Source: a bacterium (GTDB lineage: Bacteria > UBA8248 > JACPRG01 > G963555815). From it: a stretch of 64,000 nt of DNA. Below are positions 1 through 30,169 of this stretch, in pieces. The DNA lies in assembly GCA_965218795.1 (NCBI GenBank), contig OZ244653.1, positions 4,864,001 to 4,928,000 of the forward strand, read 5' to 3'. A model generated the notes under the pieces. That model was not told the DNA's origin. It saw only the letters and a program-made list of their open reading frames with translations, and did not search any database. Positions within the stretch are counted from its first letter, which is position 1, and each line of letters starts with the position of its first letter. A program made the translations under genes and the position numbers.

Positions 1-1487
1 GGGACGCCGAGTTCTTCCGCCGCGATCTGGGAGAGCACGGTCTCGCATCCCTGGCCGATGTCCACGGCGCCGGCTACGAGCCCCATCGTTCCATCCTCAT
101 TGACCTTGACGAAGGCCCCCGCTGACAAAAGTCCGCTGATGTGATGGAGTGCGGCAATGCCCATCCCGCGCATCGTCCCTGGTTTCGCGGAACCGGATGT
201 TCTCCAGCCCGCCCGAGAAGCGGCTTCATCGAAGCAGCGTTTCAGTCCCACGCTGGTGAATTTCGTTCCCCCGAGGGCCGCATCTCCGACCCCTACGGCG
301 TTCTTGAGACGAATGTCCAGGGGATCGATCCCCAGCCGATCGGCAATCATGTCGAGTTGGGATTCGGATGCGAACGTGGCCTGGGGGTTGCCGAACCCGC
401 GGAAAGCCCCGGACTTCGGCAGGTTCGTGTACACGCAATAGCCGTCGACCTGGACGTTGGGAATCCTGTAAGGCCCGCGGGCCATCATTGCTCCGAAGCC
501 CGTGATTCCCGGCCCGTCGTCGGCATAGGCGCCGGTGTTGTAATAAAGCCTCACCTGCTTCGCCGTGATGCACCCGTCCTTTTTCACCCCCGTCTTGATC
601 TCGATCCGGCAGCTGTGGCGGGGTTTCGAGAAGATAAACTCTTCCTGGCGGTTCAGGTAAAGCTTCACCTTGGCGCCGCACTTCAGAGCCAGCGCGCCGG
701 CCATCGGTTGGACGGTGGGCTCCATGCGTCCTCCGAACCCGCCACCGACACGCGTGTTGATCACGTGGATTCTCGACTGGGGGATGACCAGCGATTCCGA
801 TATCCGGATCTGCGTCAAATGAACGGACTGCGTGTTGCTCCAGATGATCAACCTGCCGGAGGCGTCCACGTCTGCGACAGCCCCGCTGCGCTCCATGTAG
901 GTCTGGTGAACGCGCGGAGTCGTGAACGTATCCTCAAAGATTTCGTCGGCTTCGGAAAACCCTTTTTCCAGGTCTCCCTCGAGGAACGTCGTATGGGAAC
1001 ACACGTTTCCATCCTGCACCGCCGGGTAGATGGTGATGTAATCTTTGAGGTCCGGATGCAGGACAGGCGCGTCCGGGGCCATGGCCTGATCGACGGTGAA
1101 TACCGCGGGAAGCTCTTCGTATTGGACTTCAATGAGCTGGATCGCTTCGGCCGCCGCCTCGTCGGTTCTGGCCGCCACGACCGCCACCGGCTCTCCGACG
1201 TACAGGGCGATGCCTCTTGCGATGGCCGGCTCGTCCTTGATAAACGGCCCCATTCGGCCCTCGGGCAGGTCTTCCCCGGTCAGGACCGCCTTCACGCCCG
1301 GAACGCGCAGCGCCTTCTCGGCGTTCACGGCGGCGATTCGGGCGTGCGGATACGGACTCCACACGACACGAGCGACGAGGGCCTCGTCATGCCGCTCGTC
1401 GTCGAAATACCGTGAGCGTCCGGTCACCTTCTCTGCGGCGTCGACCTTTACGACCCGGGTACCGACCAGCGCATGGGTTGTCGTCAT
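1..1487 (-). CDS. Xanthine dehydrogenase/CO dehydrogenase family molybdopterin-binding large subunit (3' end runs off the window)
   Basis: Not in the ORF track. Manual translation from ATG at 1487 gives MTTTHALVGTRVVKVDAAEKVTG..., VINTRVGGGFGGR and GAFRGFG. It lies directly after the FAD and 2Fe-2S subunit genes. Confidence 0.92.
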   Translation of the reverse strand, partial: MTTTHALVGTRVVKVDAAEKVTGRSRYFDDERHDEALVARVVWSPYPHARIAAVNAEKALRVPGVKAVLTGEDLPEGRMGPFIKDEPAIARGIALYVGEPVAVVAARTDEAAAEAIQLIEVQYEELPAVFTVDQAMAPDAPVLHPDLKDYITIYPAVQDGNVCSHTTFLEGDLEKGFSEADEIFEDTFTTPRVHQTYMERSGAVADVDASGRLIIWSNTQSVHLTQIRISESLVIPQSRIHVINTRVGGGFGGRMEPTVQPMAGALALKCGAKVKLYLNRQEEFIFSKPRHSCRIEIKTGVKKDGCITAKQVRLYYNTGAYADDGPGITGFGAMMARGPYRIPNVQVDGYCVYTNLPKSGAFRGFGNPQATFASESQLDMIADRLGIDPLDIRLKNAVGVGDAALGGTKFTSVGLKRCFDEAASRAGWRTSGSAKPGTMRGMGIAALHHISGLLSAGAFVKVNEDGTMGLVAGAVDIGQGCETVLSQIAAEELGV

Positions 1488-1527
1488 TCCCGACCTCTCT
1501 TGTTCTACGATTCCAGAATGCCGAGCG

Positions 1528-2004
1528 TCAGCGGCCGCCGGCGGACGTTTGGGCGGCGACCTCAATCGCTTCAAGAATCTTGACGTAACCCGTGCAGCGG
1601 CACAGGTTTCCCGCGATATGAGTCTTGATTTCCTCCCTGGATGGCTGCGGGTTCGCATTCAACAGCGCTTTCGCGGCGAGGATCATCCCGGGTATGCAGA
1701 ACCCGCACTGAACCGCGCCGGTCTGCATAAACGCCTCCTGAAGCGGGTCCAGTTTGCCGTCTCTCGCCAGCCCTTCAATCGTCGTCACCTCTTTCCCCAC
1801 GGCATCGAACGCGAACATGAGACAGGAACGGACCGCCGTGCCGTTCAGGAGTACGGTGCACGATCCGCACTCACCGACTTCGCATGCCTCCTTCGTTCCC
1901 GTCAGATGCAGCCGGTCCCGCAGCACCTCGATGAGGAGCTCGTTGGCCTTTGCGTCGACCACCTCACGCTCGCCGTTGATCTCCAGGTTCAGCTGAATCT
2001 GCAT
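1528..2004 (-). CDS. 2Fe-2S small subunit of Mo-hydroxylase (CoxS/XdhC-like)
   Basis: CEVGECGSC...C, QCGFC and NLCRCTGY motifs. Confidence 0.95.
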   Translation of the reverse strand: MQIQLNLEINGEREVVDAKANELLIEVLRDRLHLTGTKEACEVGECGSCTVLLNGTAVRSCLMFAFDAVGKEVTTIEGLARDGKLDPLQEAFMQTGAVQCGFCIPGMILAAKALLNANPQPSREEIKTHIAGNLCRCTGYVKILEAIEVAAQTSAGGR

Positions 2005-2012
2005 CGGGTGAC

Positions 2013-2900
2013 CTAAGCCTCCAGCTTCACACCGTTGGATTCCAGGGCGTTCAGCAACCCCCGCCGGACGAGGACCCGGACCATCTTGCGCCGATATTCG
2101 GCCGAGCCCCGGAGATCCGAGAGCGGAGCGGCTTCTTCAGCCGCCGCGGTCGCCGTCTCATTGATGAGTCCAGCGACCGGCCGCTGACCCCGCAGCGCCT
2201 CTTCCGCCCGGGGGCAGCGAATCGGTCTCGGGGCCGCCGCCGCCAGTCCGATTCGAACGTCTTCCACCGCTGCTCCATCTTCGCAGGCGATCGTGACCGA
2301 CGCGGAGACGACCGGTATATCCGTAGCGTTCTTTCGCAGCTTCTCATGGGCGCCGCTGCGTTCGGCAAGCTCCGGGGCGACGGTGATCCGGGTCAGGATT
2401 TCATCTTCGGCCAGCTGCGTTTCAAAGGTGTCGACGAAGAAGTCCTCCACGGCCATGACCCGCTCGCCGTCCGCGCTTTGCAGGTGGACCTGAGCGCCCG
2501 CGGCGATGAGTGCCGAGGCCATGTCGGTTGCCGGGTCGGCATGGGCGATGCTGCCGCCCACGGTCCCCATGTTGCGAATGGGCAGGGAGGCCACATATCC
2601 CGCCGCTATGGAAAGCACGGGGTAATGCTCGGCCACGACCTCGGAGTCTGCGATCCATTGATGCCGGACGAGTGCTCCCACGTCCAGGCCCTGTTCAGGT
2701 TGGAAATCAATTTGATCAATGCCCGGAATGGTTTTGATATTGATGAGAAATCGCGGCTGGATGAGATCGTACTTCATCAGGATGGCGAGGGCGATCCCGC
2801 CCGCGATAAGCTTGGCTTCTCCGGCGTGCTCCCGGAGGAGCGCGCAGGCTTCCTCGGTCGAGCCGGCTTCGATGTACTCGAACTCACGAATCCTGGCCAT
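2013..2900 (-). CDS. FAD-binding medium subunit of Mo-hydroxylase (CoxM-like)
   Basis: KLIAGG, IRNMGTVGGSIAHADPATD and SDLRGSAEYRR motifs. Start placed at MARIREFEY. Confidence 0.94.
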   Translation of the reverse strand: MARIREFEYIEAGSTEEACALLREHAGEAKLIAGGIALAILMKYDLIQPRFLINIKTIPGIDQIDFQPEQGLDVGALVRHQWIADSEVVAEHYPVLSIAAGYVASLPIRNMGTVGGSIAHADPATDMASALIAAGAQVHLQSADGERVMAVEDFFVDTFETQLAEDEILTRITVAPELAERSGAHEKLRKNATDIPVVSASVTIACEDGAAVEDVRIGLAAAAPRPIRCPRAEEALRGQRPVAGLINETATAAAEEAAPLSDLRGSAEYRRKMVRVLVRRGLLNALESNGVKLEA

Positions 2901-3013
2901 CACGATCTCTCGGGTCAGGGTCCCTGCCGGGCCCGGTTGCCGGCGCTCCACACTCCATCCGGCCGCATTCGCTTCGATAGCGGTTTTCGCGCTCGCCCGT
3001 ATTTCCCGATGGT

Positions 3014-4510
3014 CTAAGCCGACCCGGCGCTTCCCCTGCTTCCCGATGGCAGATGCGTGATCTCCTCGTCCGTAATCTTGTCGTCGGGCGGCAGTTCAAT
3101 CAGCGGCTTGTCGTACGTATCCACGAACCCATCGATGTAGTCGCCCAGATTGATGGTGTGCGTTGGGAAGTAGCAGGGCTGGTTCATCATCGGGGAGACG
3201 GTCTTGTCGATTCCAATCGGGCGCGTGCAGTCGAAGCCCATCTTCGTTACCACCGAATCGACCGTCGTGGGATCGAGCGGGATGCCGAGGCTGTCCTGGA
3301 TGAAGACGACGTCGTCCCTTCCTCGGCAGCGGGTCGCGAAGGCCCATTCGACCTGAACGTGGTTGCGGGCATCGATGTCCTCGTCCACGACCCATACGTT
3401 CTTCACGCCCTGATAGGAAAGCACGTTCGAGATGACCTGCTTTCCATGGCCCGGGTAAACCTTCTTGATGCGGACCACACAATCGAAGTACGTGCAGCCG
3501 CCCGGCGTGAGATAGACGTCGCGGATACATTCCTCGGGAAATACCCGGGCCAGCGCTTGATAGACTTCCACTTGGTTCGTGATGAGCATCGGCTGGTTCT
3601 CGTCGGGCGGCGGGCCGGTGACGATGTCGTTGTAGATGGGTTCGTTGCGGTGCGTGATGGCGGTCACGTTGAAGACCGGCGCCAGCCGTTCGTCACCGTA
3701 GTAGCCCGTAAACTCCACGAATGGGGCCTCGGGCTTGCGCTCGCGAGGCGGGATGAGTCCTTCGAGGATGATCTCGGCGTTCGCCGGCGCCTCGACGTCG
3801 ATGGTCTCACAGCGCACCATCTCGACGGCCTTGCCCCGCTGCGCCCCGGCGAAGGCGAACTCATCATCGTCGAGCGGCATGCTGGTCGAGGCCGCGATCA
3901 TGGAGGCTGGATCGGCGCCTATGGCGACGGCCATGGGGCACGGCTCGTCGCGCTCCCAGTACATCATGATGATCTGCCAAAGATTGAACGGGCTCATCCA
4001 CAACCCGGTCTGGTTTTTCTCGTGGATATAGAGGCGATGAACAGAGGCATTGTGGACCCGGGTAACGGGGTGCTGGACGATGCAGCACGCGGCGTCGATG
4101 TACCAGCCTCTGTCTTTCTTCGCGTGCCAGGTGATGGGGAACATGTTCAAGTCGATATCGTCCCCCTGAATGATGTTTTCTTTGCAGGGCCCCTCCTTCA
4201 CCACCTTTGGCTGGAATTCGCCCATCCGTTTGGAACGCTCGAAGTAATCATGCGTGAAGTTTTCCGGCGTCGTGTCGAGGCCCATGCAGACGCGCTTCTG
4301 TGTGCCGTATACGGCCACGGTCAGAGGAATACGGTTGTCTTTTCCTTTGACCTTCTCGAACCAGAGAGCCGGTCCCTGAAAATCGATGGATTTCTTGGCC
4401 ACCAGCGTGGATTCGAGGTATGGGTCCACTTCTCTTGATACGCGTTTGAGCTCGCCTTCGGATTCAAGACATTCAAGATAGGTACGAAAATCGTCGAACG
4501 ACATACTCAC
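3014..4510 (-). CDS. UbiD family prFMN-dependent (de)carboxylase
   Basis: DFRTYLECLESEGEL N-terminus, NASVHR (catalytic Arg), EAPFVEFTGYY, VVDEDID, VEWAFATR and KMGFDCT. Confidence 0.93.
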   Translation of the reverse strand: MSMSFDDFRTYLECLESEGELKRVSREVDPYLESTLVAKKSIDFQGPALWFEKVKGKDNRIPLTVAVYGTQKRVCMGLDTTPENFTHDYFERSKRMGEFQPKVVKEGPCKENIIQGDDIDLNMFPITWHAKKDRGWYIDAACCIVQHPVTRVHNASVHRLYIHEKNQTGLWMSPFNLWQIIMMYWERDEPCPMAVAIGADPASMIAASTSMPLDDDEFAFAGAQRGKAVEMVRCETIDVEAPANAEIILEGLIPPRERKPEAPFVEFTGYYGDERLAPVFNVTAITHRNEPIYNDIVTGPPPDENQPMLITNQVEVYQALARVFPEECIRDVYLTPGGCTYFDCVVRIKKVYPGHGKQVISNVLSYQGVKNVWVVDEDIDARNHVQVEWAFATRCRGRDDVVFIQDSLGIPLDPTTVDSVVTKMGFDCTRPIGIDKTVSPMMNQPCYFPTHTINLGDYIDGFVDTYDKPLIELPPDDKITDEEITHLPSGSRGSAGSA

Positions 4511-4699
4511 CCCTCCCGCGTAATCGCCTGGATTCAGAATCTCCCCCTCGACCGGCGTTCAAGCCTCGGGCGGGTCTTGAAATCCTCCCCCTGCGCCGGC
4601 AGGCAACATGAAAATAAGGATATCTTGTCTAATGGTTCGAGTGTGCATCCTAAGATGGGCTTCAATTCGATGTCAACGGAGGGCCCGGCCCGTTCGGTT

Positions 4700-5122
4700 T
4701 CAGCCGCCTGAATCACAACAGCCATTGCCGTACCGCCCGCGGCGCAACCGGCGAACAGGCCGGCTCCTCCACCGCGCATCGCGGGTTCTCCAATCATCTC
4801 GATGATCATACACATACCGGTCAGGCCCTGCGGGTGATCCCAAATCAATGAGCAATCATCGTTGTTCATGCGATCGAGATCGATGCCGGTTTCCTTTGAG
4901 ACCGGTGGGCCAGGGAAGTCCGTCAAAGGAATGCCGCTGGGGGACGGTCATCCCGAGAACTCCAAAGTCGAATGCGTTCGGGAGGATACTGCGCCGTCAG
5001 CTCTTGTTTCGCTGCATGGGCCGCAAATTCGATGCTGTGCAGTCTGGCGAAGCCGCCCTGCCGCTTGGTGAAGGGCGAACAACCCAATAGGCGCCATAAG
5101 GAATTTCGCCTTGAAAGGGCAA
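4700..5122 (-). pseudogene. Thiolase remnant with frameshifts and a large internal deletion
   Basis: Across frames it reads FQGEIPYGAYW / SPFTKRQGGFARLHSIEFAAHAAKQEL / AFDFGVLGMTVPQRHSF, joined to the C-terminal IDLDRMNNDDCSLIWDHPQGLTG...GLFAGCAAGGTAMAVV. Confidence 0.75.
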
Positions 5123-5182
5123 CGTGACGTCTCCCTTCCGATGAACTGAGCCGGTCCCCCTGTCTCCTCCATCTCGTGCGGC

Positions 5183-6718
5183 TTACGATTCTCTCAGTGC
5201 CTTTTTGTCGATCTTGCCGACCGTTGTCTTGGGGATGTCCTCCTGGACATTGATGACAACGGGTACTTTGTATTTGGCGAGGTGCTCCCGGCAGTGTGTC
5301 ATGAGATCATCCGCCGTGGTTTCGGCGTCCGTCCGAAGTACAACGTACGCCTTGATGACTTCGCCCCGGTAGTCGTCGGGCACGCCGACGGCAGCGGCTT
5401 CCTGAACGGCGGAATGCATGTAGAGAACCTCGTCGATCTCGCGGGGATAAACGTTGAAGCCCCCGACGATGGCCATGTCCTTCTTGCGGTCCCGGATAAA
5501 GAGGTCGCCCTCCTCGTCGAACTCGCCGATGTCCCCGGTGTACAACCAACCATCGCGCAGGGTTTCAGCGGTCTCCTCCGGCCGGTTCCGGTACCCCGAC
5601 ATGATCTGAGGTCCGCGAGCGCGAATCTCGCCCCGGAGTCCTGTCTCCAGGACGTTGGTCCCTGTCTCCACGTCGACAATCTGCACTTCGGTCCGGGGCA
5701 GCGGCCGGCCCACTGAGCCCGGCTTCATCGTCCGTCCCTCTGCGATATAGGTGAGCACCGGACCGGCTTCGGACTGGCCGTAGCCTTCCAGGACGGGACA
5801 ACCCGTCAGCTCCTGCCAGCGCTTGAGGGTTTCCTCGGGCAGCGGGGCGGACCCGGAATAGGCGGTGCGCAATGTGGACAAGTCGGCTTCCTGACACCCT
5901 TCGCAGGCCAGCAGTCCGTTGAAAACGGTCGGCCCCGCTGGCAGGCGGGTGATCCTTTCCCTTTCGACGGCCTCCAGCACCCGGTCGGGCCGGTAGCGCG
6001 GGAGGATCACGAGACGACCCCGGCAGTACACCGACAGGTGAAGGCACATGGCGGAGGCGAACACATGGAACAAGGGCATCATGCACAGGATGGATTCTTC
6101 ATCCTTCAGCGTCGGCAAGGCCGCTTCGCGCTGGCTGATGTTGACCGACAATTGGCCGTGGGTGATGTTGACGCCCTTGGGCAGGCCGGTCGTCCCTCCT
6201 GTGTATTGAAGCGTGGCGAGGTCTTCCGCCCGGGGTTGGGGCAGGCCGGCGGATGGGTCTTCCCTCCAGACGTCCAGCAGCCTCCCATTGGGGTGACCGA
6301 CCTTGATCCCATGCGGGATCTGGAGCTCCGCCAGGAGGGGTTCCACGGTAGAGGCGGTTTCCTGGTCGTAGACGACGGCGGTCGGTTCAGCGTCGCTCAG
6401 GATGTGCGTCAGTTCGCGAGCCGTATAGACGGGATTGATGGGCACGGCCTGTGCAGTCGCCGCATGCACGGCAAACATGGCGACAGCGATTTCGATCGAG
6501 TTGCCGCAAATCAAAGCCACCCGGCCGCCGCGTGCGCCCAGATCGACGAGCTCAGCCGCGAAACCTCCGACACATCGGACCCATTCCGTGTAGGTCAGCC
6601 GGCGGTCCTCAAAGAGCAGTGCGGTGGCGTCCCCGGCCTGCTCCTCCGCATCCGCAAGCATATGGACGACCGTCTCGAATACCCTGGGCAAATGTCCTTT
6701 CGCCGTCTCCTGAACCAT
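5183..6718 (-). CDS. AMP-binding acyl-CoA ligase (long-chain fatty acid CoA ligase family)
   Basis: YTGGTTGLPKG, GYGQSE, GWLYTGD, NVYPREID and KTTVGKIDK motifs. Confidence 0.95.
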   Translation of the reverse strand: MVQETAKGHLPRVFETVVHMLADAEEQAGDATALLFEDRRLTYTEWVRCVGGFAAELVDLGARGGRVALICGNSIEIAVAMFAVHAATAQAVPINPVYTARELTHILSDAEPTAVVYDQETASTVEPLLAELQIPHGIKVGHPNGRLLDVWREDPSAGLPQPRAEDLATLQYTGGTTGLPKGVNITHGQLSVNISQREAALPTLKDEESILCMMPLFHVFASAMCLHLSVYCRGRLVILPRYRPDRVLEAVERERITRLPAGPTVFNGLLACEGCQEADLSTLRTAYSGSAPLPEETLKRWQELTGCPVLEGYGQSEAGPVLTYIAEGRTMKPGSVGRPLPRTEVQIVDVETGTNVLETGLRGEIRARGPQIMSGYRNRPEETAETLRDGWLYTGDIGEFDEEGDLFIRDRKKDMAIVGGFNVYPREIDEVLYMHSAVQEAAAVGVPDDYRGEVIKAYVVLRTDAETTADDLMTHCREHLAKYKVPVVINVQEDIPKTTVGKIDKKALRES

Positions 6719-6798
6719 CCTTGGCCCCTATCCCGTGGTCGCGACGGAGAATCGATGTGCAGGCTGTGGAGAACCCTCCATCTGGGCAGGCAACGAGC

Positions 6799-8748
6799 CT
6801 ACCAACCCGGCGGGCGTGAAACGGTGATGTGCGGCTGGACCTCCTCCTCGGTCGGAATCCATTTGGGCGTGATGAGTTTTCCCTGCGGATGCAGCTCGTG
6901 CGCGCCGGTTCCTTCTGTGAACCCCTTCTGTTTCAGATGCTCCCGCAGGGCACGGGATTCATCCTCGTTGATACGATAGTCGCAGGCCTCCGCGTCGATC
7001 TCTTCGATGACGACGCCGTAGTAATTTCGCGCCGCCTCGATACTGAGCCATTCGTCCATCACATCGGTCAAAACCAGCTGGGGGTCCCGTTCCATCGGAT
7101 TGCCGAACCCGCCCCCTCCGCTGGACGAGTAGTAAATGACGTCGCTCTTCTTCAGCTCCACGCCGGTGGCGTACATCCCCGCATTGAACTCCCGGTCCGT
7201 GTCTTTGTTGACGACGAGCATGCTGCCCCCGGCATTGAGCCCTCCGTAGATGCCCCAGGGCGGAAATTTTTCCCGGTCGCCGTGGATGGTCATGGTGACG
7301 TCTGTCTGGATCTCGAGCTCCCGCACGAGAGCGAAGCCGCCCCGATACATGCCGTGACCGCAGCTGTCCGTGCGGGCCTCGTACTTCGTGTAGATGACCG
7401 GGAACCATCGCTCCTCCAGTTCCTGCGGAATCGTCCTGGCGTTGCAAAAGCGCATGAAGATGAGGGATTTCCCGTCCTTGAACGACCTGGCGTTCTCACC
7501 GCCCACCGCATAGGTGTATTGGACGAACTGCTTCTTCGTCCGCGGATTGTAGCCGCCCATGCAAAGGTTGGTCAGGCTCACCGCCGCGGGGTAGACTCGC
7601 CATGGCTGGACTTGGCTCATGGGACCGGCCAGGCAGCCGATAGTGACCGCCTCGACCTTGTCAAAGGCGCCGGAGCAGTAACCCGTCGTCGGCGTCGGCT
7701 CCAGGACGTGCACGCATGACCCGGGCTTCGAGATGATCTCCAGGTTTCGGATGATCCCGTGGTTCAGCGGAAACAGCGCGGGGAAGCAAATCATGAAGCC
7801 CAGATAGTTCGCCCCGATCAGTGTAGGGCGCGCGGCGCCCCAGGAGGCCCGGGGCTGCGGGTCGGATTGGGTCCAATCAAAGGAGAGCTTCGTTCCTGTT
7901 TTCGTCAACTTGCAGTGGACGTAGATGGGAGGCTTGCCTTCGGCCATGACGTCCTGGTCGCCGTAGTCGCTGAACTCCCATTCCCCGTCCGGCAACTCTT
8001 CGAGTCCGGCAAGCATCAAGCGCTCGGTGTAATTGAACTGCTCTTCATACGCCAGGAAAAGGGTTTCTTTGCCGTAGCGCCCGGCCAGCTCGACCACCCG
8101 ACGGTCGATCAGCCGGGCAGCCTCGACCTGGGCCTGAAGGTCCGCCCGCCGCTCGACGGCGCCCCGGATATTGATCTCGATCAGGCTGAAGAGTTCTTCG
8201 TCCAATTCGTCGTTCTTGAACAGGCGGATGGGCGGGATGCGGAGCCCTTCGGCGAAGCAGGTGGTGGCCTCGGGGTTGAAGGTTCCGGGCATCGGTCCGC
8301 CGATGTCGGCCCAATGGATGACCGTGCAGGCAAAGGCGACAATCTCGTCTTCATAGAAGATGGGCCGGATGAGGCGGACGTCGTTGACGTGCGAACCCGT
8401 CCGGTACGGATCGCTGAAGATGAAGGTGTCGCCGGGCTTCATCGTTTCCCTGGAGAACACCTTGAGCAACTCCGCCACGGAGGGCTCAAAGGATGCGTAA
8501 TGGGCGGCCGCATCGGTGTGACCGTGGGCGACCAGACGGGCGTCGGGGGTCAGAATGGCGTTTGAGCGATCACGCCCCATGCCCACCACCGGGTGGTAGG
8601 CGATTCGCTCAATTGTCGAGGATGCTTCGTAGCAGGCCGCCACGAAGGCGTTCCGCATGACCTCAAACGTGATGAGGTCCATCTTCAAATCCTGAATCTC
8701 CGTAAGGGTTTCTTTGACGCTCAGATTGTCTTGACGCTGTTCGTCCAT
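6799..8748 (-). CDS. Hydantoinase B/oxoprolinase family subunit
   Basis: DPYRTGSHVND, HWADIGGPMPG, EGLRIPP, DSCGHGMYRGG and GGGGFGNP motifs. Confidence 0.94.
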   Translation of the reverse strand: MDEQRQDNLSVKETLTEIQDLKMDLITFEVMRNAFVAACYEASSTIERIAYHPVVGMGRDRSNAILTPDARLVAHGHTDAAAHYASFEPSVAELLKVFSRETMKPGDTFIFSDPYRTGSHVNDVRLIRPIFYEDEIVAFACTVIHWADIGGPMPGTFNPEATTCFAEGLRIPPIRLFKNDELDEELFSLIEINIRGAVERRADLQAQVEAARLIDRRVVELAGRYGKETLFLAYEEQFNYTERLMLAGLEELPDGEWEFSDYGDQDVMAEGKPPIYVHCKLTKTGTKLSFDWTQSDPQPRASWGAARPTLIGANYLGFMICFPALFPLNHGIIRNLEIISKPGSCVHVLEPTPTTGYCSGAFDKVEAVTIGCLAGPMSQVQPWRVYPAAVSLTNLCMGGYNPRTKKQFVQYTYAVGGENARSFKDGKSLIFMRFCNARTIPQELEERWFPVIYTKYEARTDSCGHGMYRGGFALVRELEIQTDVTMTIHGDREKFPPWGIYGGLNAGGSMLVVNKDTDREFNAGMYATGVELKKSDVIYYSSSGGGGFGNPMERDPQLVLTDVMDEWLSIEAARNYYGVVIEEIDAEACDYRINEDESRALREHLKQKGFTEGTGAHELHPQGKLITPKWIPTEEEVQPHITVSRPPGW

Positions 8749-8757
8749 GGCGGTCTC

Positions 8758-10815
8758 CTACCGATCCACCTGAATCGCAAGGTTCCCGTAATCATCCACA
8801 GTGCAACGGGTACCGGGCGGCATGACGGTCGTCGTGTCGGGTTGTTCGATGATGGCGGGTCCGTCTACCGCGGCGCCGACGCCAAGCCTCTGCCGTTCGT
8901 AGATACCAGCATCCACGAATCCAGCGTCCCGGAACCACACCTTCCGGGAGGGTTTCCGCGCTTCATCGAGTGAACCCTTCCGGTCGATCCTGGGGAGGTC
9001 GGGTTTTTGAATCAGCCCCAGCGCGACGATGCGCAGGTTGACGATTTCCACAGGCGCGTAACCGGTCGGCAGCGTATAGCCGTACGCTTCTTTCATCGTG
9101 GCCTGAAAATCCTGGGTGATCCGATCGAGGCCCTCGACTCGTCCGGGAGGGATCTCGACAGTGAAAAAGCTGCTCTGGCTGAAGAATTTCACGTCGAAGT
9201 AGCGCTGGATGACCACCACCTCCTTCCCGATCCCCTCTCCCGTCAACATATCAAAGGCCCGCTGAGCGAGGCCGTCCAGTTCACCGTTCAATTCTTCGAA
9301 GTCGATCTCCTCTTCCATCTTATGGACCGCCGCGGTGAACTCATGCTTCACATCGACGCGAATGGCTCCCCAGGCGGATGCGTAACCCGGCAGGGGGGGG
9401 ATGATCACGGAAGTCGAGCCGATCTCTTTGGCAAGGTCGCAGGCGTACATCGCCCCGCCGCCTCCGTAAGGCACGATGGCGAAGTCCCGCGGATCCCAAC
9501 CGCGCGAGACGGTTTGAATCCGCATGGCCATCATCAGGTTGGTCATCGCCACCATATACATGTTGGCGGCGGCCTCCTCGGCGCTCCATCCGTAGTGTTT
9601 TCCGACCTTTTCCTTCAGTGCGTTGTAGGAGAGGCGTCCGTCCACCTTCATCTCGCCCCCCAGGAAGTAGTCGGGATCGATCCGGCCCAGGACAATTTGG
9701 CAGTCGGTGTTCGTGGCTTCCTCACCGCCCATGTTATAGCAGGCCGGACCGGGCACCGCCCCCATGCTTTGCGGCCCGACGTTCAGGATCTGCCCCTTGT
9801 CCACCCAGCCGATGCTCCCGCCCCCGGCGCCGATGTACACAGTGTCCACCGAAGGCAGGCAGCAGGGCACATTCCAAAGAATCTTCCATTCATGGGTGAT
9901 CGCGGGAGATCCCTTGTAGATCATCGACACATTATTGGTCGTGCCGCCGGTCTCGAACGCAATCACGTTTTCGAATCCCGCGAGGGATCCGATGTATCCC
10001 GCCATTCCGACGGCTCCGGACACGGGGGAGGAATGGAATGTCCGAGCCGGGAGCTTGAGGGCCTCCGCAACGCTGGTCACCCCTCCACCGCTGGTCGTGA
10101 CCAGGATGGGTCCTTCATAGGCCCAATCCTCCTTCAAACGCACGGCGAGACCGCGAAGGTAGTTTTTCAGAATGGGAGAGACGTAGGCGTTGAGAACGGT
10201 GGTGCACGTCCGCTCGAACTCGAGCATTTGAGGCAGCACTTCGAAGGAGATCGTAAGGTCCACGTCCGGAAGCTCTTCTTGAAGGATCTCACGCGTTCGC
10301 TGTTCGTGGCTGGGGTTCATGAATGAGTCGATATAGACGATCGCCACCGATTCGATGCCGCGCTTCTTGCACTTTCTCGCCGCCACGCGGACATCCTCTT
10401 CGTTCAGTGGGACGACCACTTCGCCGTACGGGCTGACCCGTTCCCGGACCGTGAGCACGTTACGCCGGGGGACGATCAGCTCAGGCGGGTCCCAGTCCAG
10501 CTCGAATGCAGAAATCCTCTCCGCCCTTCCTCCGCCCAGCACGTCCCGAAACCCGTCCGTGGTGATGAGGGCGGTCTTCACGCCCTTTCGCTCCAGGATG
10601 GCATTCGTTGAAACGGTTGCGCCATGCCGAAAGGAAATCGTCTCTTCACCCGACAGATTGGCCTTTCTGAGCCCATTGATGACGCCATCGAAGAATGTCG
10701 GCGGGGTCGACGGGACCTTCCCGAGTCGCTGCTCTCCGGTTTCGGTGTTGACTCCGATGACATCGGTAAAAGTCCCCCCGATATCGGTGCCGACGATCCA
10801 TTTTCCATTGACCAC
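8758..10815 (-). CDS. Hydantoinase A/oxoprolinase family ATP-binding subunit
   Basis: GTDIGGTFTD, HGATVSTNA, IGAGGGS, GPQSMGAVPGPACY and EQPDTTT motifs. Confidence 0.95.
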   Translation of the reverse strand: MVNGKWIVGTDIGGTFTDVIGVNTETGEQRLGKVPSTPPTFFDGVINGLRKANLSGEETISFRHGATVSTNAILERKGVKTALITTDGFRDVLGGGRAERISAFELDWDPPELIVPRRNVLTVRERVSPYGEVVVPLNEEDVRVAARKCKKRGIESVAIVYIDSFMNPSHEQRTREILQEELPDVDLTISFEVLPQMLEFERTCTTVLNAYVSPILKNYLRGLAVRLKEDWAYEGPILVTTSGGGVTSVAEALKLPARTFHSSPVSGAVGMAGYIGSLAGFENVIAFETGGTTNNVSMIYKGSPAITHEWKILWNVPCCLPSVDTVYIGAGGGSIGWVDKGQILNVGPQSMGAVPGPACYNMGGEEATNTDCQIVLGRIDPDYFLGGEMKVDGRLSYNALKEKVGKHYGWSAEEAAANMYMVAMTNLMMAMRIQTVSRGWDPRDFAIVPYGGGGAMYACDLAKEIGSTSVIIPPLPGYASAWGAIRVDVKHEFTAAVHKMEEEIDFEELNGELDGLAQRAFDMLTGEGIGKEVVVIQRYFDVKFFSQSSFFTVEIPPGRVEGLDRITQDFQATMKEAYGYTLPTGYAPVEIVNLRIVALGLIQKPDLPRIDRKGSLDEARKPSRKVWFRDAGFVDAGIYERQRLGVGAAVDGPAIIEQPDTTTVMPPGTRCTVDDYGNLAIQVDR

Positions 10816-11054
10816 TGGACTGGCTTCCTTTTCCCTTTCAGCCCCCGACCGAATCTCGAGTTCAAACGATGGAGGAGCGATTCATCCACGCATGGGGCGC
10901 GCTTCGTACCCCAGCCGGCAACTCAACCCCGGAGCGCAATCCCCGGGTCTTCCCGCTCGCAAAGGGCTTCATGAACGCCTCCGATCACAGCCATCGAAAA
11001 AGGATTGAATCAGGCCGGAACGGATGGAGCGATCCTCTCCGCCGCCTCCCGGCC

Positions 11055-11336
11055 TCAGCCCTCGGCGCTGCTTTTTTCCTTTTGGGCGGCATGTATTTCA
11101 TGGCGCGTGGCTCTCTCGGCCATGATGTGCTTGATGTAAACCTTCTGCTTGGGCCGTTTCCCCTTCAAGTAACGGTTCATGACGTCGCCCCCGAGACGGC
11201 CCCAGGCGGCCGGGTTCAAAACGACGGTCAGGTCGATATCTCCCTTCGCCGTCGCAACCAGCGCGAGAGGGGCACCGTTCATCCCGGTGATGATGCTTTC
11301 CCGGTTTTTTGCCGTCGCGGCGACCGCCTGGGTCAC
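11055..11336 (-). pseudogene. C-terminal fragment of a sugar-type (RbsB-like) ABC substrate-binding protein
   Basis: IITGMNGAPLALVATAKGDIDLTVVLNPAAWG resembles the PBP1 C-terminus. There is no signal peptide or N-terminal lobe. Confidence 0.55.
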
Positions 11337-11383
11337 TTCCCGGATTCAGCGATTGGCTCTTGTGTTCTTCTTCCTCATCGCAT

Positions 11384-11406
11384 AAAAAAGAATACTATTC
11401 TTTTTT
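11384..11406. promoter_or_regulatory. Perfect palindrome, likely TetR operator
   Basis: AAAAAAGAATA-C-TATTCTTTTTT (11-bp arms) in the divergent intergenic region upstream of the TetR gene. Confidence 0.6.
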
Positions 11407-11459
11407 TGATCGGTAGGTCAACATGTAAATCCCGGCTTGTTTGACGAAAATATAACGAA

Positions 11460-12056
11460 ATGCCACAGGTCAAAAAGGCTGCGGTACGAGACGCGATCAT
11501 GAACAGCGCTTGTGAATTGTTCATGGAGCGGGGCTATGCGAACACAACCCTCGCCGACATCGGAGACGCGGCAGGGGTGACCATTTCCAACATCTACAAT
11601 TACTTCGAATCAAAGCTCGATATTCTGTTCGCCGTCTACGCCCCCTGGCTGGACGAACGCCTGGACCGCCTTGTCGCCGAAGTAGAAGCCATCCATGAAC
11701 CTCGCGACAGGCTGCGCAAGGTATTCCTGACCCTGTTGCGTGATATCCCCGCGGAGAACGGGGGGTTCACCAACAACCTCCTGCAAGCGCTCTCCACCCG
11801 CAAGGAGGATGAGGTCTATTCGAGAGACCTGTTGCTCCGGTCCGAAGCCAAGGTCTCCTCCATCTTTCTCGAGATCCTTCCTCAACCCACTCGCCGGTTT
11901 GCCGATGGCAACCTGCTCTCCCATTTGCTCTTCATGGCCTTTGACGGGTTCGCCATCAACTATAAGCTGAATGGTGGATCCCAACAGGCGGAAGCCATAT
12001 CCGATATGCTGTCGGATCTCATCCTCAGCTCTCCCCCAGACGTAGACACTCGCTGA
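11460..12056 (+). CDS. TetR/AcrR family transcriptional regulator
   Basis: N-terminal HTH: LFMERGYANTTLADIGDAAGVTISNIYNYFESK. Confidence 0.95.
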   Translation: MPQVKKAAVRDAIMNSACELFMERGYANTTLADIGDAAGVTISNIYNYFESKLDILFAVYAPWLDERLDRLVAEVEAIHEPRDRLRKVFLTLLRDIPAENGGFTNNLLQALSTRKEDEVYSRDLLLRSEAKVSSIFLEILPQPTRRFADGNLLSHLLFMAFDGFAINYKLNGGSQQAEAISDMLSDLILSSPPDVDTR

Positions 12057-12089
12057 ATTTCCCTGAATCACCCGGTTTCGGGGACGGTT

Positions 12090-12290
12090 CGGCCCGCCAC
12101 CCGCCTCGTTCAACAAAGTCGCGATGTTTTGGAAGACTTGACGGGCTTGGCCTGCAAAATTTTCGGATTCGAACTCCTCTTTTTCGTTCCAGCCCACCAT
12201 GCCGGCGAGGAAGATCATTTTGCCTTTTGCCGTCATTCCGTTGCTGTACCCTCTGGGGCGAGGCCAATCCGGGGGCTGAAGTATCTCCAC
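12090..12290 (-). pseudogene. Truncated RidA/YjgF family protein
   Basis: VEILQPPDWPRPRGYSNG...IFLAGMVGW...FAGQARQVFQNIATLLNEAGGGP. Homology then stops, so the C-terminal half is missing. Confidence 0.8.
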
Positions 12291-12387
12291 GATTAACTCT
12301 TTGTGCTTGATTTGTTGAGGTCGCGTTTCATTTCGATACTGCGCCACATGATGGGTCGTGCTCTGCGCAAAACTTCCTGTCGCCCGA

Positions 12388-12450
12388 AAATTATATTTCA
12401 TAAATAAATATTATAAAAATAAAAATTTTAAGATTATAATAAATTTGGGA
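12388..12450. promoter_or_regulatory. AT-rich divergent promoter/operator region between the RidA remnant and the SDR-MarR operon
   Basis: About 60 nt almost pure A/T, including TATAAT, in a GC-rich background. Confidence 0.5.
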
Positions 12451-12475
12451 TATTCGACGAGGGAAGCGAAGCCAA

Positions 12476-13285
12476 ATGTCCAAATCGGAATCCAACGCTG
12501 AAGGATCAAAGCCTCTGGATGATTGCCATGCTCTGATCACTGGAGGGTCCCGGGGGATCGGTGCGGCTTGTGCCGAGGCGATTGCCGGGGCAGGCGGATC
12601 GGTCACTCTCGTAGGGCGGACGGAGAAGACCTTGCAGATCCGATGCAATGAGCTGAGGGCGGGCTACGGGGTCAAGACCTCATCCGTTGTCTGTGATGTC
12701 ACCGATATGGAAAAGATTCCAGATGCCGTTGAGCGCGCCCGGGCAGACCTTGGACCGATCAGCATCCTCGTGAACAACGCGGGTGGAGTTCAAAGCGCTC
12801 CGTTTTCCCGGACCACGAGCGAGAATTGGGAAGAAACCCTCGCCCTGAATTTGACGAGCACGTTCGCTTTCACCCGGTCCGTGCTGCCCGACATGCTTGC
12901 GCAGGATTTCGGGCGGGTCGTGAACATTGCGTCGACGGCCGGCCTCAGGGGGTATGCCTACGTCACCGCTTATTGCGCGGCCAAGCACGGGGTGATCGGC
13001 ATGACGCGGGCCCTCGCAAGGGAGCTGGCCCGGACAAGGGTTACGGTCAACGCGGTCTGCCCCGGTTTTACCGACACCGATTTGATCGGGCAGACCGTGG
13101 ACACAATCACGTCAGCGACCGGCCGGAGCCGGGAGGAGGCCCTCGGGGCATTGAAAGCCATGAATCCTCAGGGGCGCCTCATCCGGCCAGGGGAAGTGGG
13201 AGATGTCGTCGCCTGGTTGTGCCATCCGAACTCCGGGTCCATGACGGGCTTGTCCGTTCCCGTGGATGGAGGCGAATTATCGTAA
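12476..13285 (+). CDS. SDR family NAD(P)-dependent oxidoreductase (abm-cluster 3-hydroxyacyl-CoA dehydrogenase-like)
   Basis: TGGSRGIG, NNAG, YCAAKHG and NAVCPG motifs. Confidence 0.95.
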   Translation: MSKSESNAEGSKPLDDCHALITGGSRGIGAACAEAIAGAGGSVTLVGRTEKTLQIRCNELRAGYGVKTSSVVCDVTDMEKIPDAVERARADLGPISILVNNAGGVQSAPFSRTTSENWEETLALNLTSTFAFTRSVLPDMLAQDFGRVVNIASTAGLRGYAYVTAYCAAKHGVIGMTRALARELARTRVTVNAVCPGFTDTDLIGQTVDTITSATGRSREEALGALKAMNPQGRLIRPGEVGDVVAWLCHPNSGSMTGLSVPVDGGELS

Positions 13286-13812
13286 TGGCCGAAATGGCGG
13301 ACAGTCTGACCGACACCCTGGATCTTGAATCCTCCGTAACGAAGGACGACCATCTGCAGTTGCGCGTCTGGCTTCGTCTCTTGACCTGCGCGACTCTGAT
13401 CGAACGGGAAATACGCAAAGGGTTGCGGGAGGATTTCACCACAACGCTTCCCCGGTACGATGCCCTCGCCCAACTGGAGCGCAGCCCCAACGGACTGACG
13501 ATGGGGCAGTTGTCCCGGCGGATGATGGTCAGCAACGGAAATGTGACCGGGGTGGTTGACGGACTCGTGAGCGAGGGCCTCGCCGAACGGCTGGCTGTGC
13601 CGGGCGATCGTCGGGCCAGCTACGTCCGGATGACGCGCAAGGGGAACCAGGAATTCAACCGGATCACGCCCATCCACCATTCCTGGATTCGCGATATGCT
13701 GGAGGAGATGGGCCGGTCGGAGCTGACTCTTCTGTTCAACGCGCTCGGCGATCTCAAGTCATCCATATTGACCCATCTGGAGCAGGAGAAAGGGAATCCG
13801 GAGGCGACGTAG
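13285..13812 (+). CDS. MarR family transcriptional regulator
   Basis: LRVWLRLLTC...TTLPRYDALAQL...LSRRMMVSNGNVTGVVD...DRRA. The ATG overlaps the SDR stop (TAATG). Confidence 0.92.
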   Translation: MAEMADSLTDTLDLESSVTKDDHLQLRVWLRLLTCATLIEREIRKGLREDFTTTLPRYDALAQLERSPNGLTMGQLSRRMMVSNGNVTGVVDGLVSEGLAERLAVPGDRRASYVRMTRKGNQEFNRITPIHHSWIRDMLEEMGRSELTLLFNALGDLKSSILTHLEQEKGNPEAT

Positions 13813-14199
13813 ATGAAAAAGCTGAAAGGCGCTGAGTTCAAGCCCGGGTACTTCCGGTGGGAGGTCCGAGACCGTGTTGCCACGATCAGGACGGGTGGAA
13901 CATCACGGGAGACGTATGCACCCGGGCCCGGAGTCGAAAGCGCCTTGCTCGAGCATCACAAGGTCAAGGAATGCGCGGTCGTCGCCGCCCCGGATCCCGT
14001 TCGCGGACACATCGTCAAGGCCTTTGTCGTGTTGGAAAATCCGGGAGAGAGGACGCCCGAAACCGTCGAAGAGCTCCAAACCTTCGTCAAGAGCCGAATC
14101 GCGCCTTACGAATATCCACGGGGGGTTGAATTCCTCGATAGTCTCCCAAAAACGCAGAGCGGCAAGTTGCAGCGATTCAAGCTGCGGGAGCCCTCATGA
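13813..14199 (+). pseudogene. Chimeric remnant: enoyl-CoA hydratase N-terminus fused to an aromatic acid-CoA ligase C-terminus
   Basis: MKKLKGAEFKPGYFRWEVRDRVATI (crotonase-like start) is joined to GPGVESALLEH...ECAVV...IAPYEYPR...LPKTQSGKLQRFKLRE (AMP-binding C domain). Confidence 0.75.
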
Positions 14200-14439: not shown

Positions 14440-15981
14440 CTACTTGGGCAGGTCCCAGCTTTCCTCCATCGGGTATGTCAGCCGGTCGAGTTTTCGGGGA
14501 AGATAACGGCCGTGGCCGTGCTCGCCGGAGACCTGGTCCCCTTCGAATATGACCTTTCCCCTGCAGATCGTCATCGAGGGCCACCCCTTGATCTGTCGCC
14601 CTTCGTAAATCGTAAAGTCGGCATAGGACCGCATCCTATCCGCCGTAAAGGTCATTTCCTTATCCATGTCCAGGATCACCAGATCGGCGTCCGCGCCCGC
14701 CCGCAAGGATCCCTTTTTCGGGAACAGGCCGAATGTCTTGGCTGGGTTCTCGCAGCAAATCTCCACAACGCGCTCCAGGGAGAGCCGGCCTTTGTGGACG
14801 CCTTCACTCAGCATGAGAGGAAGCAGGGTCTGCATCCCCACGAAGCCCGAGCCGGTCGACCATACGTCATCCCGCGGATCCGTGGTCCGGTCCCCGGTAT
14901 CCCCGCGGACAAATTTTTCATGGATGCTCGTGACCACGTGGTCCGTCCCCATGCAGGCGACCCGTCCGTCCTGGACCCCTTCCCAGAGCGCCGCATTGTG
15001 GGATTCGTCGCGAATGGGGGGGTTGACCTTGAGCGCCCGGGCGTTGGGCTGGCCGCCGATCTTCGGTTCATCGTTCTTGGTCATGATGAGATACTGAGGA
15101 CAGGTCTCCACGATGATTTGACAGCCCTTTTTTCTCATCTCGTCACAGGCCTCAAGGCCGTCCGCAGTGGACAGGTGGAGGATATAAAAACGGCACCCCG
15201 CCTTCATGGAGAAGAGACCGTAACGGTAGATATGCTCGGCCTCGCACCATGGCGGACAGCGGTCCGTCCACGCGGGACCGTCCGTCCGGCCCTCCTTCCG
15301 CAGCCGGTTCATCACGGCGGTCGCGACTTCGGTGTTCTCATTGTGAATCAGGGCCAGCCCGGCCGGTCCGAGCTTTCCGATGTGCTCGAACCCGGTCCAG
15401 AACAATCCGTCGTCGTAATCCCCCGGCATCCCCATCCGATATTTCCATTTGGGCGCAACGTTCGCCGTCTTCGGCTCCCGCAGATTCGCGTAGAATTTCC
15501 ACGAAGGAATCCCGTACTGATGCGCCGCATTCGGGATATCGTCGCATTGCTCATCGGTGCTGATGTATGGAGTGTAGAAGAAGTCGATGATGGAGGACTC
15601 CTCCCCGATGTCCCTGGCCACGGGAAGGCGTTCCGTCCACGGACGGGCGTCCTCTTCGGTGACGAATTCCTTGTATTCCCGGTCCGCCCTTCCCGCGCCG
15701 TGCATGACTCCCATGGTCGTCACGCCGCCGACGGCGGCCCCGGGAGTCTCGGTGGTGAAATCCTGCTCCAGAAGATATTTTCCGCCGATATGGGTGTGAG
15801 GGTCGACGACGCCCGGGATGACGTAGCTTCCCTCGGCGTCGATGACCCGCTCGGCGGGAGGAAGATCCGAACCCGTGGTGATGCTCGAGATGCGATCGCC
15901 CTCGATGACGATACTCGCCATTTGGCTGCCGGCGGGTGAGACAATCCGCGCGTTGCGCACGATCAGATCAGCTCCTGCCAT
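14440..15981 (-). CDS. Cyclic amidohydrolase (dihydropyrimidinase/allantoinase/dihydroorotase family)
   Basis: DPHTH, WKFY (carbamylated Lys), IHNEN, ILHLST, ETCPQYL, KVNPPIR, GTDH and ENPAKTFGLFPKKG motifs. Confidence 0.92.
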   Translation of the reverse strand: MAGADLIVRNARIVSPAGSQMASIVIEGDRISSITTGSDLPPAERVIDAEGSYVIPGVVDPHTHIGGKYLLEQDFTTETPGAAVGGVTTMGVMHGAGRADREYKEFVTEEDARPWTERLPVARDIGEESSIIDFFYTPYISTDEQCDDIPNAAHQYGIPSWKFYANLREPKTANVAPKWKYRMGMPGDYDDGLFWTGFEHIGKLGPAGLALIHNENTEVATAVMNRLRKEGRTDGPAWTDRCPPWCEAEHIYRYGLFSMKAGCRFYILHLSTADGLEACDEMRKKGCQIIVETCPQYLIMTKNDEPKIGGQPNARALKVNPPIRDESHNAALWEGVQDGRVACMGTDHVVTSIHEKFVRGDTGDRTTDPRDDVWSTGSGFVGMQTLLPLMLSEGVHKGRLSLERVVEICCENPAKTFGLFPKKGSLRAGADADLVILDMDKEMTFTADRMRSYADFTIYEGRQIKGWPSMTICRGKVIFEGDQVSGEHGHGRYLPRKLDRLTYPMEESWDLPK

Positions 15982-16076
15982 TGTTCTTTCTCCCAGGAAT
16001 CTCGGGGTTCAGGTGAGTCCAGCGAATGTTTGCACTGCGTGCAATCCACGCTGACGGCCTGCTGATGGGTAATAAT

Positions 16077-17438: not shown

Positions 17439-17561
17439 CGTTGGTATGCCTTGCTCGATAGAGTCCGGGGTCCCCCTGGCGGGTGACGGTGAGTATCAGC
17501 ATTTCGAGAGAATCAGGGGAGGACGCCGTTCGCGGCGAGGATCTGCATTCGCCGCACCCCG

Positions 17562-18326: not shown

Positions 18327-18493
18327 GAGGGTCCTTTCTTTATGAGTTGTGACAGAGCTTCTGCAACATACCATACTCGCGGCCTGAATCGCTCGGTTTG
18401 CCGCCCTGCTTTCTCACCCGGGGCAAAAACGATATGATTGCTTTTCGTGTGAATCCATCTTGCATTGCATTGACCGTTTCGGAGTCGAATCGA

Positions 18494-29465: not shown

Positions 29466-29555
29466 ACCCAAACGCGGATCCGTAGGATGAAGAAGCACCT
29501 GAGCGCACCGAAGTAAAAGGTCAATAAAACGGGAGCAGCACACTTCACCGTAACC

Positions 29556-30150: not shown

Positions 30151-30169
30151 TCACGGTAGGGAAGAAACC

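Follow-up and report, generated by a model that had tools for sequence, protein, structure and literature searches.

An operon that combines UbiD, molybdenum hydroxylase and hydantoinase-type enzymes and may serve heteroaromatic acid catabolism

The 64,000-nucleotide stretch of bacterial DNA analysed here (G000:C1:4864001-4928000; hereafter the window) carries at its left edge an operon that combines a two-subunit hydantoinase/oxoprolinase-type enzyme (HyuA and HyuB) with an acyl-coenzyme A (CoA) ligase, the remnant of a thiolase, a UbiD-family enzyme dependent on prenylated flavin mononucleotide (prFMN), and the flavin adenine dinucleotide (FAD), 2Fe-2S and molybdenum (Mo) subunits of a xanthine dehydrogenase (XDH)-family hydroxylase. 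These eight genes lie on the minus strand, run in one direction across window positions 1-10815 and are separated by short gaps; all are present as first listed in a preliminary description of this DNA. Together with the divergent reading frames upstream they are:

8758-10815, minus strand: HyuA, hydantoinase A/oxoprolinase-type ATPase subunit of 685 residues (Pfam Hydant_A_N, Hydantoinase_A and Hydant_A_C)
6799-8748, minus strand: HyuB, hydantoinase B/oxoprolinase-type subunit of 649 residues (Pfam Hydantoinase_B, 421 bits)
5183-6718, minus strand: AMP-forming acyl-CoA ligase of 511 residues (Pfam AMP-binding and AMP-binding_C)
about 4702-5122, minus strand: thiolase pseudogene, delimited by comparison with the intact thiolase at L098:7507-8712
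3014-4504, minus strand: UbiD-family prFMN (de)carboxylase of 496 residues (TIGR00148)
2013-2900, minus strand: XDH-family FAD-binding medium subunit, 295 residues from the ATG at 2900 (Pfam FAD_binding_5 and CO_deh_flav_C)
1528-2004, minus strand: XDH-family 2Fe-2S small subunit of 158 residues (Pfam Fer2 and Fer2_2)
from the ATG at 1487 leftwards (L009:17178-19487), minus strand: XDH-family Mo large subunit of 769 residues (Pfam Ald_Xan_dh_C, MoCoBD_1 and MoCoBD_2)
10869-11444, plus strand: open reading frame of 191 residues, divergent from hyuA and of uncertain gene status (no Pfam or NCBIfam match)
11460-12056, plus strand: TetR-family regulator of 198 residues, candidate regulator of the operon (Pfam TetR_N, 53.8 bits)

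The Mo gene ends 822 bases to the left of window position 1, in flanking DNA that was examined as well, and encodes all three Mo-subunit domains; its start was set by comparison with the metagenome contig L098. Beyond it lies a convergent Liv-type ABC transporter, and we therefore place the left end of the operon there. Apart from the pseudogene stretch, the intergenic gaps measure 8-113 base pairs, with 9 base pairs between hyuA and hyuB. Neither promoter-like sites (4 versus 2.7 +/- 1.3 expected) nor terminators (8 versus 10.3 +/- 3.6 expected) exceeded chance in scans of the operon region. The TetR gene had been described as divergent from the operon; it is indeed encoded on the opposite strand, but it does not directly adjoin hyuA, as the 191-residue reading frame lies between them. 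The latter is weakly conserved in G003, a genome of the same family (41% identity over 71 residues). The L098 operon has no TetR gene and instead carries an RbsB-like binding protein upstream of its hyuA.

With three Hydantoinase_A domains in HyuA and an adjacent HyuB, the first two genes display the organisation of lactamases, oxoprolinases and hydantoinases, and the best-scoring characterised relatives of the pair are two-subunit ATP-dependent lactamases (caprolactamase CapAB, 5-oxoprolinase and N-methylhydantoinase). Among proteins of known structure, HyuA matches N-methylhydantoinase with 454 bits and caprolactamase (6yra_A) with 335 bits, compared with 317 bits for acetophenone carboxylase and 238 bits for acetone carboxylase; the corresponding values for HyuB are 206, 198 (CapB, 6yra_B), 136 and 56 bits. 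Likewise, HyuAB score higher on the caprolactamase models of NCBIfam than on its Apc models, although HyuA with 481.4 bits (NF050156), and a second score of 242.6 bits, stay far below the equivalog cut-offs of 1000. HyuB also differs from CapB in length, exceeding its 581 residues by about 70. Neither gene calls nor Pfam matches revealed a gamma- or epsilon-type small subunit or a second alpha'-type subunit gene in the operon. The metal-site motifs of HyuB are no discriminator, since the tetrad Asp-His-Asp-His is shared by the hydrolase and carboxylase classes (available part of PMC8453981). Judged by sequence, HyuAB thus appear nearer to ATP-dependent hydrolases than to ketone carboxylases.

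The UbiD protein scores 356.5 bits on TIGR00148 (cut-off 244.85) over its full length and retains the active-site residues Asn154, Arg159, Glu261 and Glu266, which we take to be the metal/prFMN-binding Asn, the catalytic Arg and the two Glu of the family. Its matches to solved structures are nearly equal for Escherichia coli UbiD (250 bits) and HmfF (6h6v, 247 bits), and the phenylphosphate carboxylase models score it at only 186.6 and 154.5 bits. The cofactor could be provided by the single UbiX gene of the genome, which is located outside the operon (C1:1275870-1276376; NF004685, 234.5 bits versus a cut-off of 188). In two of three alignments, Asn305, invariant in six orthologs, occupies the specificity position of HmfF His297 and HudA Asn318, whereas the third, shifted by two residues, places Pro307 there, in a loop that carries indels; the furan-specifying His of HmfF is in neither case present. 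The accessible text of PMC7976604 equates this His with Asn318 of HudA, a residue that binds the N-H of pyrrole or imidazole. Across the 40 UbiD paralogs of the genome the column holds 15 His, 10 Asn, five Ser, three Val, two Asp, two Glu and one each of Ala, Leu and Arg, a spread as expected of a specificity position. We regard the possible equivalence of Asn305 to HudA Asn318 as a lead only.

The Mo subunit finds its best relative of solved structure in the alpha subunit of 4-hydroxybenzoyl-CoA reductase (HcrABC; 1rm6_A, 439 bits), all others scoring 279 bits or less. On the corresponding model, TIGR03194, it attains 612.9 bits versus a cut-off of 994.55, the 19th-best score among the 51 paralogs listed. 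Scores of 515-780 bits, without exception under the cut-off, are reached by at least 51 paralogs in the genome. The FAD subunit is of the CoxM type and aligns collinearly with the 278-296-residue subunits 4zoh_B and 7dqx_B. It lacks the 4Fe-4S insert of HcrB, matches HcrB itself (1rm6_B) with only 36 bits and scores 99 bits on TIGR03195 (cut-off 404.55). As the extra 4Fe-4S loop of the beta subunit defines 4-hydroxybenzoyl-CoA reductase, and as the alpha subunit falls short of its model, we rejected membership in that enzyme family. For the 2Fe-2S subunit every NCBIfam equivalog stayed below its cut-off, and no subunit reached a purine or pyrimidine equivalog cut-off; affiliation with purine/pyrimidine salvage clades, combined with inactivity on bicyclic N-heterocycles, had been named beforehand as an outcome that would speak against the proposed pathway.

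The acyl-CoA ligase is matched best by PRK06187 in NCBIfam (428.3 bits, below the cut-off of 476) and, among solved structures, by malonyl-CoA synthetase and feruloyl-CoA synthetase with about 245-248 bits. The thiolase, suspected from the outset to be a remnant, is a true pseudogene in this genome. Only residues 1-77 (at about 4892-5122) and 333-399 (at about 4702-4902) of the 401-residue L098 thiolase are kept, in different frames and with about 790 base pairs deleted between them. The two pieces are 64-65% identical to their L098 counterpart, compared with 75-91% for the neighbouring genes. The best thiolase paralog in the genome is only 28% identical, so no close substitute is encoded.

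Contig L098 represents one other organism with the complete operon: the same eight genes occur in the same order, including an intact 401-residue thiolase. Protein identities amount to 75-91% by tblastn and 76-91% in codon alignments. With ratios of non-synonymous to synonymous substitution rates (dN/dS) of 0.05-0.15, each of the seven intact genes is under purifying selection. In G003, HyuA, HyuB and the ligase are conserved at 80-91% amino-acid identity up to the end of the contig. A DNA search of 30 relatives gave a long match only for these three genes in G003 and found no operon in G001, a 93% complete genome of the same genus, or in the other genomes searched, a result that does not establish its absence.

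UbiD orthologs of 60-91% identity were detected at five loci of the genome collection and 11 metagenome loci; we consider them orthologs because the closest paralog within the genome is only 38% identical. Nine distinct loci of at least 10 kb were counted, with the near-duplicates L101 and L102 taken as one and the shorter loci L099, L100, L104 and L106-L108 left out. XDH subunit genes lie within 9 kb of the UbiD ortholog in six of the nine (L010, L011, L013, L098, L101/L102 and L103; none in L012, L014 and L105), and Hyu genes in four (L010, L012, L013 and L098). The Hyu proteins of L010 and L012 belong to a sister subfamily: identity is 58-64% with the paralog encoded at 2.156 Mb in the genome and 44-48% with HyuAB of the window. 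The preliminary description had made its proposal depend on finding the gene set together in some other genome; the full set in L098 and the UbiD-XDH-Hyu triad in further lineages bear it out in this respect. In the ortholog clade of 71-72% identity, an OYE/enoate-reductase-type gene is positioned directly upstream of UbiD in all four distinct loci that include this flank (L013, L099, L100 and L101), a hint that would fit a ring reduction before lactam hydrolysis.

The presence of a UbiD gene had initially been regarded as a special feature of the operon. This does not hold, as the 5.2-Mb genome encodes 40 UbiD paralogs, about 70 XDH Mo subunits and 24 HyuB proteins, all with one UbiX, besides 55 NMT1-type binding proteins and 18 dihydropyrimidinase-like genes (tblastn); C1:978054-981958, 2117344-2163410 and 2518154-2533146 are examples of the expanded regions. 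The operon therefore has many counterparts of similar make-up in this genome. UbiD matches number 31-58 in three genera of the family, two in a fourth genus with 2.1-Mb genomes and 1-6 in other families of the class. Hence, the UbiD expansion is lineage-specific and confined to three genera, and no description of a UbiD/XDH expansion was found in the literature searched; the wider paralog expansion is possibly more notable than the operon itself. A UbiD gene is found within 5 kb of an XDH gene at 12 of the 40 loci (4.9 expected under random placement) and within 10 kb of both XDH and HyuB genes at six (1.4 expected), a crude null because catabolic genes cluster anyway. HyuAB genes adjoin UbiD at eight of the 40 loci. 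A better argument than these placement statistics is orthology, as the 60-91% identical orthologs elsewhere keep the same partners.

Among characterised systems, the hmf cluster for furoate and 2,5-furandicarboxylate is the closest architectural analogue. According to the available part of PMC8091172, it comprises the UbiD/UbiX decarboxylase HmfFG, the ligase HmfD, the furoyl-CoA dehydrogenase HmfABC and the hydrolase HmfE, which together allow decarboxylation, CoA ester formation, hydroxylation beside the heteroatom and ring opening. Both systems cluster a UbiD protein, an AMP-forming ligase and a three-subunit XDH-family enzyme. The operon nevertheless is no hmf ortholog. We compared it with L112, a Caballeronia plasmid cluster of canonical hmfFG-ABCDE-H layout that is taken as hmf by synteny only, and obtained identities of 29-40% (Mo 31%, ligase 33%, UbiD 35%, FAD 29% and FeS 40%). 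The Mo subunit with its 769 residues also departs from HmfA (1010-1015 residues), for which PMC8091172 sets a criterion of at least 45% identity. The Asn aligned in most cases with the HmfF His is a further difference, as is the absence of UbiX and of an HmfE-type hydratase: Pfam found no enoyl-CoA hydratase domain in the operon or its flanks, where the thiolase pseudogene is seen instead, and HyuAB are added. By contrast, another locus of the same genome, L111 (G000:C1:925001-943000), is 37-55% identical to L112 (HmfA 43.5%, HmfD 47%, HmfB 37% and HmfC 55%). It encodes HyuA, HyuB, a UbiD protein with the His, Amidohydro_2, a ligase, an enoyl-CoA hydratase, Mo, FAD and FeS subunits and a PaaK-like ligase, and is flanked by two EamA transporters and Amidohydro_1/2 genes. 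From the likeness of L111 to L112 we conclude that UbiD, ligase and Mo enzyme work as one pathway in this lineage.

The second point of reference is anaerobic indoleacetate degradation by Aromatoleum aromaticum (iaa), for which an XDH-type Mo hydroxylase is proposed. For the lactam, ATP-dependent ring opening by the Hyu-type enzyme IaaCE has been proposed (PMC8453981, in the portion available), and the CoA chemistry that follows, including the ligase IaaB, leads to 2-aminobenzoyl-CoA (PMC8360864, likewise in part). Mo hydroxylase, Hyu-type enzyme and CoA chemistry are common to both systems. The operon differs in having UbiD and a thiolase and in lacking counterparts of iaa components named in the accessible part of PMC8360864: no IaaL-type CoA-transferase, IaaGH B12 mutase or IaaF decarboxylating acyl-CoA dehydrogenase was found from window position -18000 to +16000 or in L098. 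The preliminary description was accordingly right that a B12 mutase is absent. Its parallel with iaa survives as a logic of hydroxylation, lactam formation, Hyu-type opening, CoA activation and thiolysis, still the best-fitting one, while kinship in gene composition does not, and the indole/quinoline-type carboxylate that it put forward is a candidate substrate at most. In sum, the operon falls outside the hmf and 4-hydroxybenzoyl-CoA reductase systems and, judged by gene composition, outside iaa as well, although it shares their logic.

On the basis of these comparisons, we consider the chances about even that the operon serves the catabolism of a heteroaromatic carboxylate, most likely an N-heterocyclic one, via a lactam that is opened at the expense of ATP. 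The prFMN-dependent UbiD protein would remove, or in reverse add, a ring carboxyl group. The three-subunit Mo hydroxylase would introduce a water-derived oxygen at the ring carbon beside the heteroatom and so create the lactam tautomer, whose lactim form HyuAB would phosphorylate with ATP before hydrolysing the ring. The acyl-CoA ligase would activate a carboxylate for processing of the open-chain acid, and the thiolase of the ancestral operon would have cleaved a 3-oxoacyl-CoA. The data establish the protein families with their intact catalytic motifs, the gene layout, the conservation of the set and of its core, purifying selection and the loss of the thiolase; we infer the substrate, the order of the steps and whether the Mo enzyme would act on the free acid or on a CoA ester. 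By chemical reasoning, a kynurenate-type scheme might employ every gene: UbiD would decarboxylate a 4-oxo/hydroxy-2-carboxy N-heterocycle, hydroxylation at C2 would yield a 4-hydroxy-2-quinolone or 2-pyridone lactam, its opening by HyuAB would give a beta-keto acid, and CoA activation and thiolysis would release an aminoaroyl-CoA and acetyl-CoA. Judged by title or abstract, none of the papers listed in a search on the degradation of kynurenic acid, dihydroxyquinoline or 2-aminobenzoylacetate with molybdenum was relevant. In a bolder variant, which we consider rather unlikely, the phosphorylated lactim or enol made by HyuA could be carboxylated by UbiD, and UbiD carboxylation driven by ATP in this way would be new.

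We know of no characterised pathway in which a UbiD decarboxylase works together with an XDH-type hydroxylase and an ATP-dependent lactamase. Ring opening by the sequence of Mo hydroxylation, lactam formation and ATP-dependent cleavage is, to our knowledge, still no more than a proposal, made for indoleacetate. A literature search, with most subscription journals outside its reach, found no paper that pairs UbiD with a hydantoinase. If the proposal is true, the operon would allow oxygen-independent opening of N-heteroaromatic rings and supply biocatalysts of interest for carboxylating heteroaromatics reversibly, hydroxylating them regioselectively and hydrolysing lactams; if its genes are merely neighbours, it is an ordinary catabolic island.

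Several observations weigh against the proposed lactam pathway. None of the enzymes attains a functional equivalog cut-off in NCBIfam, and the likeness of the Mo subunit to HcrA says nothing specific about this enzyme, because it extends to all the paralogs noted above and is clade-wide. Similarity among UbiD proteins does not predict the substrate (PMC7976604, available text), and the third alignment at the specificity position detracts from Asn305 as a guide. Given the number of UbiD, XDH and Hyu genes in 5.2 Mb, chance alone should bring some of them together. The full gene set recurs in only one of the nine distinct ortholog loci, and ligases elsewhere are of other subfamilies (29% identity in L010, PaaK-like in L012). 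The thiolase is dead in this genome and has been deleted further in a strain of about 95% identity, where one contig of the sponge metagenome run X16 joins position 4734 to 5190 with 59 other letters replacing 4735-5189. In addition, the L098 ligase contains an in-frame TAG (L098:7146-7148) where the window's ligase has Lys, which may reflect genuine decay or a fault in the assembly. Taken together, these lesions indicate that the CoA branch may be undergoing decay, or that a coupling to the other genes of the operon may never have existed. Transcription in situ is no more than weakly hinted at: in the sponge metatranscriptome run X20, four contigs show 100% identity to segments of UbiD (3130-3343), of the ligase (5738-5892 and 6326-6511) and of HyuA (8888-9102), leaving most of the operon uncovered, and this RNA evidence consists of assembled contigs with DNA carry-over uncontrolled and no silent-stretch control.

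Some of the same facts would be explained if two or three independent modules, with a HyuAB-ligase-thiolase block and a UbiD-XDH block, stood side by side and formed no single pathway, an alternative that we find unlikely yet still substantial. In L010, L011, L013 and L101, UbiD and XDH genes are accompanied by neither this ligase nor this thiolase, the Hyu proteins beside the UbiD ortholog in L010 and L012 are those of the sister subfamily, and the CoA branch is damaged on both sides, by the thiolase deletion here and the ligase stop codon in L098. Paralog density in the genome is high, and a promoter-like match precedes UbiD at 4676-4647, although such sites are not above chance in the region. 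Against a mere juxtaposition stand the identical eight-gene order in L098 and the common strand with its short gaps outside the pseudogene stretch. Moreover, the triad of this UbiD orthogroup with XDH and Hyu genes recurs in varied arrangements in several lineages, and the proximity of UbiD to both XDH and HyuB at six loci exceeds the random expectation.

In acetophenone degradation, the ketone is carboxylated to benzoylacetate, which a ligase and a thiolase convert to benzoyl-CoA. The order of Hyu-type enzyme, ligase and thiolase in the operon mirrors this route, so HyuAB might instead be a carboxylase that produces a beta-keto acid for ligation and thiolysis to an aroyl-CoA and acetyl-CoA, with UbiD and the Mo enzyme acting upstream or downstream. 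The carboxylases are related to Hyu enzymes and share their Asp-His-Asp-His metal site (PMC8453981, as far as available), and HyuB is longer than CapB, as noted above. We nevertheless deem a ketone-carboxylation route quite improbable: both subunits score higher against hydrolases than against carboxylases, the caprolactamase models rank above the Apc models, and the operon encodes none of the additional gamma, alpha' or epsilon carboxylase subunits, for which reason membership among the acetophenone and acetone carboxylases was dismissed.

Anaerobic phenol degradation proceeds through a phenylphosphate carboxylase. By analogy, HyuA could phosphorylate the hydroxyl group of a phenol-like compound or pyridone, UbiD could carboxylate the product, the ligase could form the CoA ester and an HcrA-like Mo enzyme could dehydroxylate it reductively. 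Hyu enzymes do phosphorylate enol and lactim tautomers (PMC8453981, in the accessible part), HyuAB adjoin UbiD at the eight genomic loci counted above and in L012, and among solved structures the Mo subunit comes closest to 4-hydroxybenzoyl-CoA reductase alpha. Such an analogue is highly improbable, however, as the Mo subunit lies far below the HcrA cut-off with a likeness common to its paralogs, the FAD subunit has no 4Fe-4S insert, UbiD scores lower on the phenylphosphate carboxylase models than on the generic one, and no role would remain for the thiolase. Finally, the operon is almost certainly not a true iaa member: beyond the shared families of the Hyu-type hydrolase IaaCE (PMC8453981), the ligase IaaB (PMC8360864) and the XDH-type enzyme, IaaL, IaaGH and IaaF are missing in and beside it here and in L098, and UbiD does not belong to iaa as described in the available part of PMC8360864.

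The catabolic reading of the operon, via an ATP-opened lactam, can be extended to the lineage. Forty UbiD proteins served by one UbiX, together with about 70 XDH enzymes, suggest an unrecognised niche, the scavenging of heteroaromatic acids in a sponge-associated lineage. In a wider hypothesis, which we consider rather unlikely as a whole, this lineage would have multiplied the design of UbiD and Mo hydroxylase, often with Hyu, into dozens of modules for host- or seawater-derived heteroaromatic acids. The operon would then be the oxygen-independent N-heterocycle counterpart of hmf, converting a pyrrole-, pyridine- or quinoline-type carboxylate to a lactam for caprolactamase-like, ATP-dependent opening. 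Near-identical DNA is present in run X4, possibly the source of the window, and relatives of about 95% identity cover almost all of window positions 1-11500 in X14 and X16, sponge metagenome runs from two studies. About 6.5-9 kb to the left of the window, L009:8864-11476 encodes an 870-residue protein with 13 Sel1 repeats and a trypsin-like peptidase domain; Sel1-type repeat proteins are common in sponge symbionts.

Next to the operon, positions 11610-14199 hold gene debris, which had been interpreted as the remnant of an abm-like (2-aminobenzoyl-CoA) operon. It consists of a RidA-like fragment that covers only profile positions 10-63 of 121, an SDR gene, a MarR gene and the last approximately 115 residues of an acyl-CoA ligase at 13813-14199, with MbcS and the benzoate-CoA ligase family as best NCBIfam matches. 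None of these is diagnostic of abm.

Further families of the operon reappear along the window. A second module at 14440-20275 is composed of a dihydropyrimidinase-like gene (14440-15981), a second UbiD (16077-17438), a DUF169 gene (17562-18374) and an orphan HyuB (18398-20275) with no HyuA beside it; L010 shows the converse, an orphan HyuA adjoining a second UbiD. At 29076-38549, two reading frames without a family match (29076-30116) precede XDH-type FeS and FAD genes (30170-31645) that have no Mo-subunit gene nearby, followed by HyuA/HyuB (31765-35762), an M20 amidohydrolase (35940-37295) and an Amidohydro_2 gene (37698-38549). Two MoeA-type genes for Mo-cofactor biosynthesis, one fused to a PBP-like domain, are located at 59532-62832; the pair fits the heavy Mo-enzyme load of the genome. 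At 42706-47403, an rve-type integrase and a two-frame IS110-family transposase adjoin a SulP sulfate-permease gene broken into two reading frames that overlap (45749-46909 and 46786-47403).

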